Shown here in pieces: positions 30,098 to 36,004 of a stretch of 36,943 nucleotides of DNA (its first letter is position 1; each line of letters opens with the position of its first letter). Source of the DNA: an uncultured Gammaproteobacteria bacterium. GTDB taxonomy: Bacteria; Patescibacteriota; Patescibacteriia; Magasanikbacterales; UBA922. The stretch lies in assembly GCA_964498735.1 (NCBI GenBank), contig CAZCHJ010000002.1, positions 1 to 36,943 of the forward strand, read 5' to 3'. Made by a program: the position numbers and the translations under genes. The notes beneath the pieces are model-generated. The model saw only the letters and a program-made list of their open reading frames with translations, had not been told where the DNA came from and did not search any database.

Positions 30098-33000
30098 ATG
30101 TCAGCATACGATCAATTTTTGAAAGAAACAACTCCGTCGGGCGGCACTCCGAAAGTGGTGCCTCCTTCCGTTGGTAGTCAGTCTCAACCTCCAACTCCGC
30201 CAACATCGGCAAGTTCGAAGTTTTCGAGTGAGACTTCAACGATTACTCCGACGCCGGTAAAAACTCCAAGCGCTCAACCAACGAGCGCTTATGATCGTTA
30301 CATGCAAGAAACATCAGGAACTCCGGCCGTTGTTACCCCTCCGGTGGCAACTCCGAAGGCTTCATTCATCGATCGCGTCAATGAAAAAGGACAGCGTCTC
30401 GGTGGATCTCTCGACGCTGGTGTGCTCGAAGGTGTGTCCGGAATCGTGAAAGGTTTTCAATGGGCTGGCGGCGCTCTCGCCGGTGCGTTTGGCGGAAACA
30501 AAATTACAGCGAAGGCAAGTCAGGAGGCGCTTCAGCAAAAGATCAATGATCAAACGAAGCTTCTCGATTTCATCAAAGAGCAAAAAAAGATCGGAACTCC
30601 GGAAGCGATCAACAAAGCAAATCACGCGCAAAAAACTCTCGATATCATCACAAAAGAACTTTCAAACAACACCGCGCAAGATTTTCCTATGAGTATGGAT
30701 TTTATAGCCGGAACTCCGAAGATCACAAAGACGGCCGACAAGATTCAGGCATGGGCGGACGCAGTAAAAAAATCAAACAACATCACTCCGGAGAATCAAA
30801 CATTCGCGGAGAAGGCTTTCGAAGGAGTAGGATCTTCGATTCCGTATTACCTTCCGGCTATCGGTATTGCTCGCGGTGCTTCAGTCCTCGCGAATGTTTC
30901 TCCGCGCGTTGCTATGCTTTTCGGAGGATCCGCTTCGGCCGCACTTGAATCAATGGGAGAAGCCGGTCAGGTATACGAAACAGTCAAAAAAGAGAAAGGC
31001 ATCGACGCCGCTCGCGACGCTTCAACAAAAACTTTTTGGGCGAACGCTCTTCTTCTTTCTCTCACAGAAAATCTCGGTGTATTCAATCCGGAGGTGAAAG
31101 GTGTTCTCAAAAAAGCCCTGATCTCCATGCCGATTGAAGGTTTTCAGGAATCAGTTCAGCAAGTGATCCAAAACGTAAACTCCGGTCGTCCTATTTGGGA
31201 AGGAGTAAAAGAAGCCGGTATCATCGGAGGAATCGTCGGTGGCGTTCTTGGAGGAACGACGGATCTTGTTGCTCCAAATGAGAATCCTGAAGTTCCACCG
31301 GTAAAAATCCCCGACGGCGAACGTGTTTCACAAGAAACACCGGCCACCGGATCAGCCTTTGAGAAGTTCCAAAACGAGACAAAAGGCATAGATCTCACTC
31401 GTCCGGCCGCAGAGATCCAATCACAGATCGAAGAGGCGGCTAGAAAGGGTGCGGCTGAAGCCGTGGCCGCGCAGGACAAGAGTTCGAAGGCCGATCAGGG
31501 AAAGGCGGCGGAAACAACTCAAAAGGCTTCTACGGCGAATATAGAGCGTCCGGCCACCTCAAAAGAGGCGGCTGATCGCTATTTCAAGGACGTCCTCAAG
31601 AACTCTCTTGAAGGCAACGCTTATGTTATCGGAGCCGACGATCTCAAGGATCATTTCGGCGGAGATTACGCGGACGCACGCCATACGGAGATCTATTCAA
31701 AAGCAACATTCGATCTCTATAAAAAAGGCCTCAAACTCAATAAGGGAGACAAAGTGATCCTTACCGGTGGAGGCGCCGGAGCAGGGAAAACGGAACTCGT
31801 AACTTCCGGCCTAATTGCCGGAGGTTTTGACGGCGTGCTCTACGATTCAAATCTTTCAAGTATTCAGGGGGCGAAAAACGCAATCGCCGAAGCTCGAAAG
31901 GCAGGGAAGGACGTCGAGATCTACGGCGTGCTTCCGAATCTTGAGAAGGCTCGCGGCTTCACGATCTCACGAGAGAATCGCACCGGCCGAGGTATCAGCG
32001 ACGAAACATTCGCTCGCGGTCATTCAGGTTTTCCGGCCGTCGTTCGTCAGCTTATTGAAGAAAAAATCATCAATCCGGACAACGTTCACCTTCTCGATAC
32101 TCGAAACATAAACACGTTTGAGGAAGCTTTCGATATGGTAGCAAATCAGCACTATGTCAAGGATCCTCTTGCCACAGTTAAAAGCTTGGGGTACACTAAA
32201 GAAGATCTACAAAAAAACTATGCAAAAGAACACTACGATACCAAAACAGCCGAACGTCGATCCGCAGTACCAAGCGGCGAAGGATCTCGTGGCACACCTT
32301 CACAAGATCGGGCAAATCAAGAAAATGCCAACGGAGGCGGAAATGAAAGCGTATTGGGCAAAAATAAAAGCGAAAAAATAAAAGAAGCCGAAGAGGTTCT
32401 CAAAAATCAAATTGGTGATATTTTTAAGATTGTCGAGCCGGTAGGCAATCTATGGAAGAGCAAAGGGAATGTTTTGTTCATTTCTCTAAAAACGGAAAAG
32501 ACGGGATTTGCCGCATGGCTCCGTCAGAAAAACTTTATCGTCAGCGCTCAAGAAGCAGGGAATAATATTTTCAAAGTCGAAGTCAAAGTTCCTGAAAAAA
32601 CACCAACAAACGGCATCGTTGGCGCTTCGATCGGAAAGTTCCGCGAAGAAGGCGGCGGCGATATCAAGCTCGGAAACTTCGAGCAGATCAAACCGATTGA
32701 GTTTCCGGAACTTCTCTCGTTCGCAAAGGATCTCTCCGGATCCGAAGTGTTCATCAAAAATTACAAATCCGCAAACGGTATGTTCTACGGCGCGGACGCA
32801 CGAATCGGCCTCAATCCGGATCTCTTTAAGGCCGGAAACATTCAACAACTTCAAAAGACAATGGCGCACGAGATCGGCCACTTGATCGATTACCTTCCGG
32901 AAAAAACTCTCGCACGCGGAAATGTTCTCGGACGCCTTGCGGTGCTCCGCGATTTCCATAAAGATTTTTATGCAAAGGCCGGAGCTTCTCGAACGAATAA

Positions 33001-36000: not shown

Positions 36001-36004
36001 ATAA
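30098..36004 (+). CDS. Giant polyvalent (probably virion-delivered) protein, 1968 aa: Gly-zipper membrane segments, zeta-toxin-like P-loop kinase domain, HExxH zincin domain, about 1000-aa uncharacterised C-terminal half
   Basis: Gly-zipper segments GALAGAFGG and GIIGGIVGGVLGG. P-loop VILTGGGAGAGKTE (nt 31766-31792) sits in a zeta-like context (YVIGADDLKDHF...). Zincin motif MAHEIGHLIDY (HEIGH at nt 32867-32881). Confidence 0.65.
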   Translation: MSAYDQFLKETTPSGGTPKVVPPSVGSQSQPPTPPTSASSKFSSETSTITPTPVKTPSAQPTSAYDRYMQETSGTPAVVTPPVATPKASFIDRVNEKGQRLGGSLDAGVLEGVSGIVKGFQWAGGALAGAFGGNKITAKASQEALQQKINDQTKLLDFIKEQKKIGTPEAINKANHAQKTLDIITKELSNNTAQDFPMSMDFIAGTPKITKTADKIQAWADAVKKSNNITPENQTFAEKAFEGVGSSIPYYLPAIGIARGASVLANVSPRVAMLFGGSASAALESMGEAGQVYETVKKEKGIDAARDASTKTFWANALLLSLTENLGVFNPEVKGVLKKALISMPIEGFQESVQQVIQNVNSGRPIWEGVKEAGIIGGIVGGVLGGTTDLVAPNENPEVPPVKIPDGERVSQETPATGSAFEKFQNETKGIDLTRPAAEIQSQIEEAARKGAAEAVAAQDKSSKADQGKAAETTQKASTANIERPATSKEAADRYFKDVLKNSLEGNAYVIGADDLKDHFGGDYADARHTEIYSKATFDLYKKGLKLNKGDKVILTGGGAGAGKTELVTSGLIAGGFDGVLYDSNLSSIQGAKNAIAEARKAGKDVEIYGVLPNLEKARGFTISRENRTGRGISDETFARGHSGFPAVVRQLIEEKIINPDNVHLLDTRNINTFEEAFDMVANQHYVKDPLATVKSLGYTKEDLQKNYAKEHYDTKTAERRSAVPSGEGSRGTPSQDRANQENANGGGNESVLGKNKSEKIKEAEEVLKNQIGDIFKIVEPVGNLWKSKGNVLFISLKTEKTGFAAWLRQKNFIVSAQEAGNNIFKVEVKVPEKTPTNGIVGASIGKFREEGGGDIKLGNFEQIKPIEFPELLSFAKDLSGSEVFIKNYKSANGMFYGADARIGLNPDLFKAGNIQQLQKTMAHEIGHLIDYLPEKTLARGNVLGRLAVLRDFHKDFYAKAGASRTNKEVTDQLWALSKYWKPIDESTASKSFLSYRKSAAEVYADFISVMFNNPKLAGEMAPTAYNIFFEQLDAKPKVKAAYFELQDFLRNGEKVAQSRKDKTQNMFVQADQISKDRQHQLEIENEQKKKSLWFLFKFQNVSRFESFREKVKALEKKGVYVNPDDNPVYFLEESNYIGGKIKAEVDTRFNTIYQELQNNGLTWDDLGEITFYERILKGDRAEVANPEGLQIDFVQELYDGFEGVAPDPTNSKKGTVSMRAQLGDEKFAKLQALAVQYRQQIKDLYKEAYDAGLLPTATWDMIEKNDYYVPFKPIKYGGTKTNYRIKQQKGTLSAIENPANTGIEKSVSLIRAVEKNKVNKASIDFLKAHYPEELQEAKYAFNGKTRIALEPLDKDMRLVRYMEDGKMKAYYVDKYIGEALQKTPVGHSNLIIQGLRFMNSTLFRPLFITFNTGFQSFNLVRDALRFWKNVPDMTLIKTIKLYAKSARAAKVRAFGISENASVKDRAAYDLINKLEEDRVLSITYNDMIKGEDVEDKQIDRIMRETGVREAQSTKLGRLGEKFGITKKTPVIKQIIGIMDFIEKTGNLIESMPKIAGYYALEGKLPPAEMRSYVRRKVGSPDFLDGGKFKPVINEVFLFSNAIFQGIRSDYEVATDPKTRSGYWWKTAQANIVPKILMTMAAAGLFGDELEKLFGKVSEYDKTNYTVVPLGTDQNGKAVYIRIPSDETGRLISGLFWKISQAAQDPKKLADADTYTNILAYAGGQAPSISPSVTAIYNVGTFLSGQNPYDFFRGRNVLTDEQMTAGGAEKWKPFLSYMFDNLGGATFTKLYTNETVPKNPTLSERVVALPVVSNVLGRWLKVSDYGETEKLKEITGEVDKKKAKEALENRRTVFDAVDAAQGKSYAEANKIKHDMIKAVVGIPNTPEKRALAQSLANRFDKLRVRGSADRNVDALITAQSNEAKVALLKEFEKNMSTQDFADLKKFIIKNHVVSSAAYQQFLREKSKK

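Follow-up and report, generated by a model that had tools for sequence, protein, structure and literature searches.

A zeta-toxin-like kinase in a variable slot of a phage polyvalent protein

The giant gene and its kinase module

The stretch of DNA analyzed, referred to below as the window, covers positions 1 to 36,943 of contig CAZCHJ010000002.1 and has the appearance of an almost complete phage genome (∼37 kb). The subject of this work is a giant gene at 30098..36004 on the + strand. It encodes 1968 aa plus a stop codon, begins with ATG and has no internal stop; this open reading frame (ORF) and its motifs had been listed in a preliminary description made from the letters and were confirmed at these positions. 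The ATG lies 8 nt past the stop codon of an upstream LysM gene. The same M(S/G)AY..FLKET sequence opens 11 close homologues of the giant protein, and the start at 30098 is supported by this shared N terminus. A public gene call (P0001, 1949 aa) begins 19 codons downstream of the favored ATG (window 30098-30154). When compared by BLAST with 17 homologues the protein was split into three parts, namely aa 1-475, a middle stretch and aa ∼840-1968, of which the middle stretch has no counterpart in the closest relatives. This stretch contains an apparently active kinase of the type of the zeta_1 toxin of N. gonorrhoeae (ng_zeta1), with catalytic residues intact.

The kinase module was assigned to 31550..32257 (+; aa 485-720, 236 aa) by Pfam, profile comparison, AlphaFold2 (AF2) and Foldseek. 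Pfam Zeta_toxin (PF06414), with a cutoff of 22.3 bits, gave 38.6 bits for the whole protein (E = 1e-9) and 44.1 bits for the isolated segment of the variable slot described below (E = 2e-11). Of the 199 profile positions only 98-192 were matched, which make up its C-terminal half. A profile of 28 kinase-family members matched ng_zeta1 (6EPH) with E = 1.7e-11; with the same profile the PezT match was confined to the P-loop (E = 0.003) and zeta reached 0.21. Identity between the module and ng_zeta1 is only ∼20%. A reading as polynucleotide kinase was considered and rejected, PNKP being far weaker by sequence (1.4e-4 vs 1.7e-11) and by fold (1.3e-3 vs 1.8e-8) and matching over the P-loop half only.

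The fold prediction that had been proposed in the preliminary description was run on aa 485-720 with the alignment of the 28 kinase-family members and gave a model with a predicted local distance difference test score (pLDDT) of 95.5 and a predicted template modeling score (pTM) of 0.91. When this model was searched against the PDB with Foldseek, the top 14 matches were zeta-family toxins (ng_zeta1, zeta, PezT) and AvrRxo1. The best was ng_zeta1 (6epi_F, E = 1.8e-8, TM 0.66), followed by zeta (3e-5), PezT (3e-4) and AvrRxo1 (8e-4). The zeta-type fold and family first suggested for this region were thus recovered, whereas the sequence type is that of the block-swapped ng_zeta1 and not that of PezT or zeta.

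Compared with classical zeta toxins, ng_zeta1 has two blocks of its sequence in exchanged order, and because of this swap its catalytic Asp56 precedes the P-loop Lys115 (Rocker et al., 2018; PMC5923241). In the profile alignment the phage sequence 'igaDdlK' falls on VCADTFK of ng_zeta1 (residues 53-59), and D514 (31637-31639, +), the candidate catalytic Asp, is aligned with Asp56. D514 is invariant and lies 50 residues ahead of K564; the order canonical for zeta, in which Asp67 follows the P-loop by ∼20 residues, was not found. In the kinase model D514 comes directly after a strand (aa 509-512) and is followed by a helix that leads to the P-loop strand (aa 552-557). Walker A was placed at 31766-31792 (+; aa 557-565). 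The sequence GGGAGAGKTE, which had been noted near residue 557 with an end at 31792, is present and extends one codon further, over aa 557-566 (nt 31766-31795), with GGAGAGKT (Walker A GxxxxGK[ST]) at aa 558-565.

By the same alignment K517, K564, R625 and R631 are the equivalents of Lys59, Lys115, Arg175 and Arg181. Conservation was scored over 137 kinase-family members: D514, K564 and R625 are present in all (137/137 each), K517 in 132/137 and R631 in 108/137, with His in the other 29. Lys59, Arg175 and Arg181 are uridine diphosphate (UDP)-sugar contacts in ng_zeta1 (PMC5923241). Their equivalents were assigned via sequence alignment only, and the conservation of these contacts points to a UDP-sugar as the probable substrate.

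Module exchange and the spread of the kinase

The kinase lies in a variable effector slot at 31264..32662 (+; aa ∼390-855), over which the closest syntenic relative has no homologous DNA. In a blastn comparison with that phage contig (L003) the segments 30717-31263 and 32663-36109 were aligned and nothing between them; the capsid proteins of the two phages are 91% identical, and those of the sister phages 85-91%. As judged from this alignment, the slot appears recombination-prone and sharply bounded between syntenic phages.

Other modules were found at the slot position or upstream of the peptidase in the relatives. These were an ART-PolyVal-like HGT-motif module in P0002, P0008 and P0012, DGxxR ParB-like modules in P0005, P0006 and P0009, and a transglycosylase (SLT) together with an N6/N4 DNA methylase in P0013. 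More distant relatives have InPase (P0015) and LPD3 (P0016) upstream of the peptidase. In 38 giants that share the scaffold, that is, the peptidase and the C-terminal block, everything ahead of the peptidase was scanned with Pfam. The scan returned LPD3 in 6, SNF2/ResIII helicases in 4-5, ddrB-ParB in 4, Zeta_toxin in 3, and InPase, RadC, GGDEF and Sno-type helicase in 2 each; LPD13, LPD23, ART-PolyVal, methylases, PRTase and DnaJ were also present in this region.

The kinase family was collected with an exhaustive HMMER search using aa 485-720 against 1.84 billion cluster representatives, which gave 349 relatives, 74 of them below 1e-30; the family counts at least 349 clusters at 50% identity. 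A word-indexed homologue search had come back empty. The idea of an orphan kinase was dropped and the empty result was put down to a lack of sensitivity, since the exhaustive search gave 349 relatives. The best-scoring relatives are for the most part internal segments, at residue ∼300-1200, of proteins 1500-4700 aa long, and most of the best 150 matches sit in proteins of ≥1500 aa. By BLAST the scaffold of the giant protein is shared by only ∼11 of the best 150 kinase-bearing proteins. Kinase and scaffold identities appear incongruent: in P0025 the kinase is 52% identical and the scaffold 34-42%, and in P0081 the kinase is 38% identical and the scaffold 51-55%. The kinase is present at only 3/52 scaffold loci. 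In 24 other kinase-bearing giants almost no further Pfam domain was detected.

A tblastn search of 50,697 phage genomes on deposit gave no copy of the kinase module, and among plasmids there was only one weak match. In BFVD, uncultured-phage proteins labeled 'Zeta toxin domain containing' were matched at 17-21% identity. Base composition shows no sign of a recent acquisition of the kinase, the GC content being 0.489 in the kinase, 0.482 in the giant gene and 0.478 in the window. Many kinase-bearing giants of another scaffold (alignment P0019-P0046) end in LDHxxPLxxGGxNxxxNLxL, a motif that looks HNH-like and is absent from the protein of the window.

Other parts of the giant protein and the phage genome

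The first 100 residues (30098..30397, +) are of low complexity with 46% Pro/Ser/Thr, which bears out the Pro/Ser/Thr-rich N terminus reported before. They are followed by a conserved N block (30410..31263, +; aa ∼105-389) that closes with a glycine-zipper hydrophobic helix at aa 373-393 (nt 31214-31276). Identity over aa 1-475 is 41-57% to P0002-P0011, the close lineage. The helix is the sole strong hydrophobic peak of the protein (Kyte-Doolittle 1.46). Of the two glycine-zipper segments that had been called hydrophobic, GIIGGIVGGVLGG (aa 374-386) falls within this peak, whereas GALAGAFGG is present at ∼aa 125-133 and is not strongly hydrophobic. Between kinase and peptidase (32240..32602, +) lie a low-complexity linker at aa ∼715-760 and a small domain at aa 761-835. 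The small domain has no family match in Pfam, and P0008 is the only homologue that aligns over it, starting from aa 767.

A short motif, [SG]A[YF][DE]x[FY]xxE[TG], is repeated in the giant protein at aa 2, 63 and 419 and more weakly at 1956. The copies are located at 30101-30130, 30284-30313, 31352-31381 and 35963-35992 (+), 4 copies compared with 0.09 expected from shuffling. Close relatives have copies in matching places, at the N terminus, at ∼aa 40 and where the N block ends and the slot is about to begin. Speculatively, the copies might be processing or docking sites; the motif is similar to the L/I-x-E rule of the T4 prohead protease.

The zincin-like metallopeptidase (MPTase) was placed at 32690..33142 (+; aa ∼865-1015). 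Its HEIGH motif (aa 924-928; 32867-32881, +) lies within MAHEIGHLIDY, and E1002 (33101-33103, +), which is invariant in 17 sequences, is the proposed third zinc ligand. H924, E925, H928, D931, E1002, Y1004, A1005 and D1006 are invariant in these 17 sequences, down to 22% identity. The model of the peptidase has a helix, two strands, the HExxH helix and a later helix bearing E1002, a minimal zincin layout. Pfam matches were weak (SprT-like in 13/17 members, M48 in 6/17). Local Foldseek matches, all sub-threshold, were to anthrax lethal factor and the minigluzincins selecase and abylysin. Against PDB sequences, both the full protein and the profile of the whole family gave only an insignificant match to a snake-venom zincin, at HExxH. 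The zincin peptidase of the preliminary description is thus supported by the invariant HExxH...E, the weak SprT and M48 matches and the local fold matches. Neither the P-loop nor the HExxH motif is a chance occurrence, because the Pfam match to the kinase is above cutoff, K564 is conserved in 137/137 and the peptidase residues are invariant. An HExxH-xx-D form has been described for a phage-type MPTase clade, for which autoprocessing of the polyprotein was proposed (PMC5512222).

The C-terminal scaffold (33143..36001, +; aa ∼1016-1968) is a conserved block of ∼950 aa, predicted to be mostly alpha-helical. Its identity is 58-80% to P0002-P0013, 36% to P0014 and 22-26% to P0015-P0017. The C-terminal ∼1000 aa had been described as free of recognizable motifs, and this holds: nothing significant was obtained in Pfam, PHROGs, a PDB sequence search or a fold search. 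The scaffold contains no convincing Pfam LPD, the only such match being a weak one to LPD38, in P0014. The giant protein has no family in PHROGs; what single members of the alignment matched there is due to the modules in their own slots.

Among deposited phages a homologue of the giant protein was found only in the cultured Pelagibacter phage Baldr. This protein (2329 aa), to which the scaffold is 23% identical, shares the HE.GHLID motif and the C block and carries a transglycosylase-like N-terminal motif; its gene is flanked by the tail tubular genes on one side and the tail fiber on the other, the position of T7 gp16. When prokaryotic species were scanned with one genome each, the peptidase and C-block scaffold was located at 52 loci in metagenome-assembled genomes (MAGs) and chromosomes of many phyla. 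The loci include Mb-scale contigs of Vicinamibacterales and Gemmatimonadales, which are presumably prophages. Scaffold relatives were also observed on contigs of 15-40 kb (L019, L007, L008, L009) binned as a Thermoplasmatales archaeon and as MAGs of the candidate phyla radiation (CPR), the latter from Saccharibacteria, Beckwithbacteria and Minisyncoccia; these may be mis-binned phage contigs or indicate real hosts.

No terminal repeat was found in the window. The early block (886-4459 and 6612-7199), devoted to replication and recombination, encodes a DnaA/IstB-like ATPase, AAA_24, a PD-(D/E)XK nuclease, a single-stranded DNA-binding protein (SSB) and a weak NinB match, and no polymerase was detected among the ORFs scanned. 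A tRNA-Met (CAT) at 12535-12606 stands directly ahead of a 364-aa ORF (12643-13737), a candidate endolysin with a C-terminal PG_binding_1 domain. The late block runs in the order large terminase, SU10-type portal, HK97-type capsid, a 995-aa Laminin_G_3 protein, tail fiber, LysM protein and giant protein, the giant gene being its last large gene. The same late neighborhood of the giant gene was seen at five related loci. Family scans of the large late products, and Pfam scans of the smaller late ORFs, gave no match to tape-measure, sheath or tube proteins; on these negatives the tape-measure-less virion of the preliminary description is a conjecture.

The LysM protein (482 aa; 28642..30090, +) is encoded directly upstream of the giant gene and matches Pfam LysM with E = 6.5e-9; no catalytic lytic domain was identified in it. 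A LysM or PG_binding_1 protein of 464-586 aa is likewise encoded directly upstream of the giant gene in L002, L003, L004, L005 and L006, and the pairing recurs even in the unrelated kinase carriers L005 and L006. The two genes look like a conserved pair. The 995-aa Laminin_G_3/DUF2341 protein (22583-25570) and the 675-aa fiber protein (25571-27598) were aligned with those of the sister phages only partly or at 35-50% identity and are probably fast-evolving receptor-binding proteins. In L004 a SPRY-domain protein was observed in place of the Laminin_G_3/DUF2341 protein. A 104-aa ORF downstream of the giant gene was considered as an antitoxin and rejected, there being no match to it in the sister phages.

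Proposed role and comparison with known systems

The computations above establish what the domains are, that their catalytic residues are intact, that the slot varies and which genes lie nearby; together these are best read, in our judgment, as the traits of a packaged, ejected and self-cut polyprotein whose kinase would poison UDP-N-acetylmuramic acid (UDP-MurNAc) or UDP-N-acetylglucosamine (UDP-GlcNAc, UNAG) early in infection, a reading we consider probable. With its N block, its slot, and its peptidase and scaffold, the giant protein has the layout of an internal or ejection protein into which a cargo bay has been fitted. It would be made late, packaged in the virion and ejected with the DNA and the adjacent LysM protein, after which the peptidase may cleave the polyprotein and release its modules. 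With ATP the kinase would then phosphorylate a hexose hydroxyl of UDP-MurNAc or UDP-GlcNAc, the 4'-OH if it acts like ng_zeta1, and the dead-end phosphorylated precursors would stop peptidoglycan synthesis in the newly infected cell. We infer packaging and ejection from the gene position; that the protein cleaves itself, what the kinase acts on and how the phage would profit are put forward in the same conditional sense.

Several results weigh against this account. The presence of the giant protein or its relatives in virions is proposed from gene position. No homology to T7 gp16 or gp15 was found (hhalign probability 0.3% and 0.1%), and the C-terminal region of the N4 virion RNA polymerase (vRNAP) matched only at the HExxH...E-YAD motifs (probability 1.4%); the role as ejection protein is consequently argued from position and class precedent. 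The AF2 model of aa 840-1968 is poor (pLDDT ∼57, pTM 0.33), and since it is poor and gave only sub-threshold local zincin matches, no fold is claimed for the C-terminal scaffold. Asn75 of ng_zeta1, which reads the carboxyethyl group of MurNAc and helps the enzyme to prefer UDP-MurNAc (PMC5923241), aligns with R528, in a loop whose alignment has an indel. This position is Asn in 91/137 and Arg in 28/137 family members. Because of the Arg, the substrate preference may differ from that of ng_zeta1. An attack on the wall by the kinase is also not obviously needed, because the genome has a separate putative endolysin at 12643-13737.

The remaining slot occupants bear on what the kinase might act upon. 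They are mostly modules of counter-defence directed at nucleic acids or NAD, among them ART, a ParB-like DNase, a methylase with helicase, InPase, RadC, GGDEF and PRTase, most of which act on nucleic acids or nucleotides. This leaves room for a target outside the wall. With the same delivery, the kinase could be a counter-defence enzyme that phosphorylates NAD+, a nucleotide immune signal or another nucleotide-linked metabolite; AvrRxo1, which phosphorylates NAD, is among its structural neighbors (E = 8e-4), and the Arg in place of Asn75 would fit as well. This alternative is judged unlikely, though it is the strongest of those weighed here: ng_zeta1 is by far the closest relative in both structure and sequence, AvrRxo1 and PNKP being three to five orders of magnitude worse, and the UDP-sugar contacts Lys59, Arg175 and Arg181 are conserved in the kinase family. 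A role late in infection is less probable again. Here the kinase would block peptidoglycan precursors in the producing cell, in the manner of a single-gene lysis protein, and the rest of the giant protein would be structural. The gene does lie in the late block, and E. coli cells in which ng_zeta1 is expressed lyse within 30 min (PMC5923241). The sister phages, with capsids 85-91% identical, have no kinase and carry unrelated slot modules, however, so that the kinase cannot be the lysis mechanism of the lineage, and the genome already has a candidate endolysin with PG_binding_1.

The protein is long, largely helical and encoded next to tail-fiber genes, as a non-injected structural protein of the tail or tape-measure kind would be, in which the kinase and peptidase motifs would be decayed passengers. 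The catalytic residues of both enzymes are intact and strongly conserved, the kinase model is very confident and the architecture fits the polyvalent effector class, all of which makes a structural passenger protein very improbable. Least credible of all is a toxin of a toxin-antitoxin (TA) or addiction module carried on the phage or prophage. Zeta toxins are classical TA toxins, and kinase-bearing relatives of the scaffold do occur in Mb-scale Vicinamibacterales chromosomes. The kinase is, on the other hand, internal to a 1968-aa late protein with no conserved small partner gene (the 104-aa ORF was unmatched in the sister phages), and most of the best 150 kinase-family matches lie in proteins of ≥1500 aa.

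On the reading as an ejected polyprotein, the giant protein provides a concrete, testable example in which a phage protein of the virion type has a metabolic toxin kinase for its cargo. The sister phages with ART-like, ParB-like and methylase modules form a natural swap series in which the contribution of each injected effector could be followed. The structurally odd gonococcal zeta_1 toxin is linked to a large, unstudied phage family, which bears on the origin of zeta toxins; ng_zeta1 relatives have been reported from ∼25 mainly pathogenic proteobacteria (PMC5923241). We advance, as a doubtful proposal, that the ng_zeta1-type kinase is primarily a phage cargo cassette and not a rare TA toxin of proteobacteria. 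It would be exchanged among unrelated ejection-protein scaffolds and, within minutes of the start of infection, be injected against the UDP-sugar pool of the host or a nucleotide-based immune signal, and the gonococcal toxin would be an offshoot that was domesticated. The 236-aa kinase domain, which is predicted to fold with confidence and is probably lytic, may also be a candidate antibacterial tool.

Polyvalent proteins of phages and conjugative elements were described by Iyer, Burroughs, Anand, de Souza and Aravind (2017, J Bacteriol; PMC5512222), who inferred injection for the class and listed zeta-like kinases among its wall-directed modules. As far as sequence can tell, the assignment of the giant protein as a polyvalent virion-type protein is well founded, because the 38 scaffold giants draw on the domain repertoire of that work; it is a clear new example of the class described in 2017 and not a new kind of system. 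The term polyvalent had already been used for it in the preliminary description and is supported by the kinase and metallopeptidase in one polypeptide and by relatives that swap modules of the published repertoire. Shared with the class are a giant polypeptide of unrelated enzymes, a zincin-like MPTase hub (HExxH-xx-D), a late or virion gene context, and homologues carrying ART-PolyVal, ddrB-ParB, SNF2 with methylase, InPase, RadC, GGDEF, PRTase and LPDs. Particular to this case is a kinase in an internal slot of a protein of MPTase and helical scaffold beside a LysM gene. The His that is conserved at the end of strand 2 in the polyvalent MPTase clade was not seen in the 17-sequence alignment.

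The best match to the kinase by sequence and structure is ng_zeta1 of the N. gonorrhoeae epsilon1/zeta1 system (6EPG, 6EPH, 6EPI; PMC5923241). The two share the block-swapped order, with the strand of the catalytic Asp before the P-loop, and five key residues. The phage module differs in having no epsilon1 antitoxin, in being embedded in a polyprotein and in its Arg for Asn75; no oligonucleotide/oligosaccharide-binding (OB)-fold domain follows it, and it ends in helices and then the low-complexity linker. With streptococcal zeta and PezT (1GVN, 3Q8X, 2P5T; PF06414), which are UNAG-3'-kinases, it shares the P-loop kinase fold and, by its residues, a chemistry with an Asp base, a P-loop Lys and Arg residues, whereas its catalytic Asp is N-terminal of the P-loop instead of ∼20 residues after it. 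Unlike the TA operons of zeta toxins, the locus has no adjacent epsilon or PezA-type antitoxin gene, and the kinase is internal to the 1968-aa ORF.

T7 gp16 (with gp14 and gp15) and the N4 vRNAP are of a similar size class and have a similar late-gene position. T7 gp16 also has a transglycosylase-like motif, as does the Baldr homologue, and an MPTase with HExxH and E-x-YAD is part of the N4 vRNAP as well. The likeness to these proteins is one of position and presumed role, not of family membership. The class itself, with its MPTase hub and with zeta-like kinases as one of its module types, has been known since 2017 (PMC5512222). Added here are the ng_zeta1 topology of the kinase and the size of its phage family, the sharply bounded slot and the recurrent upstream peptidoglycan-binding partner.

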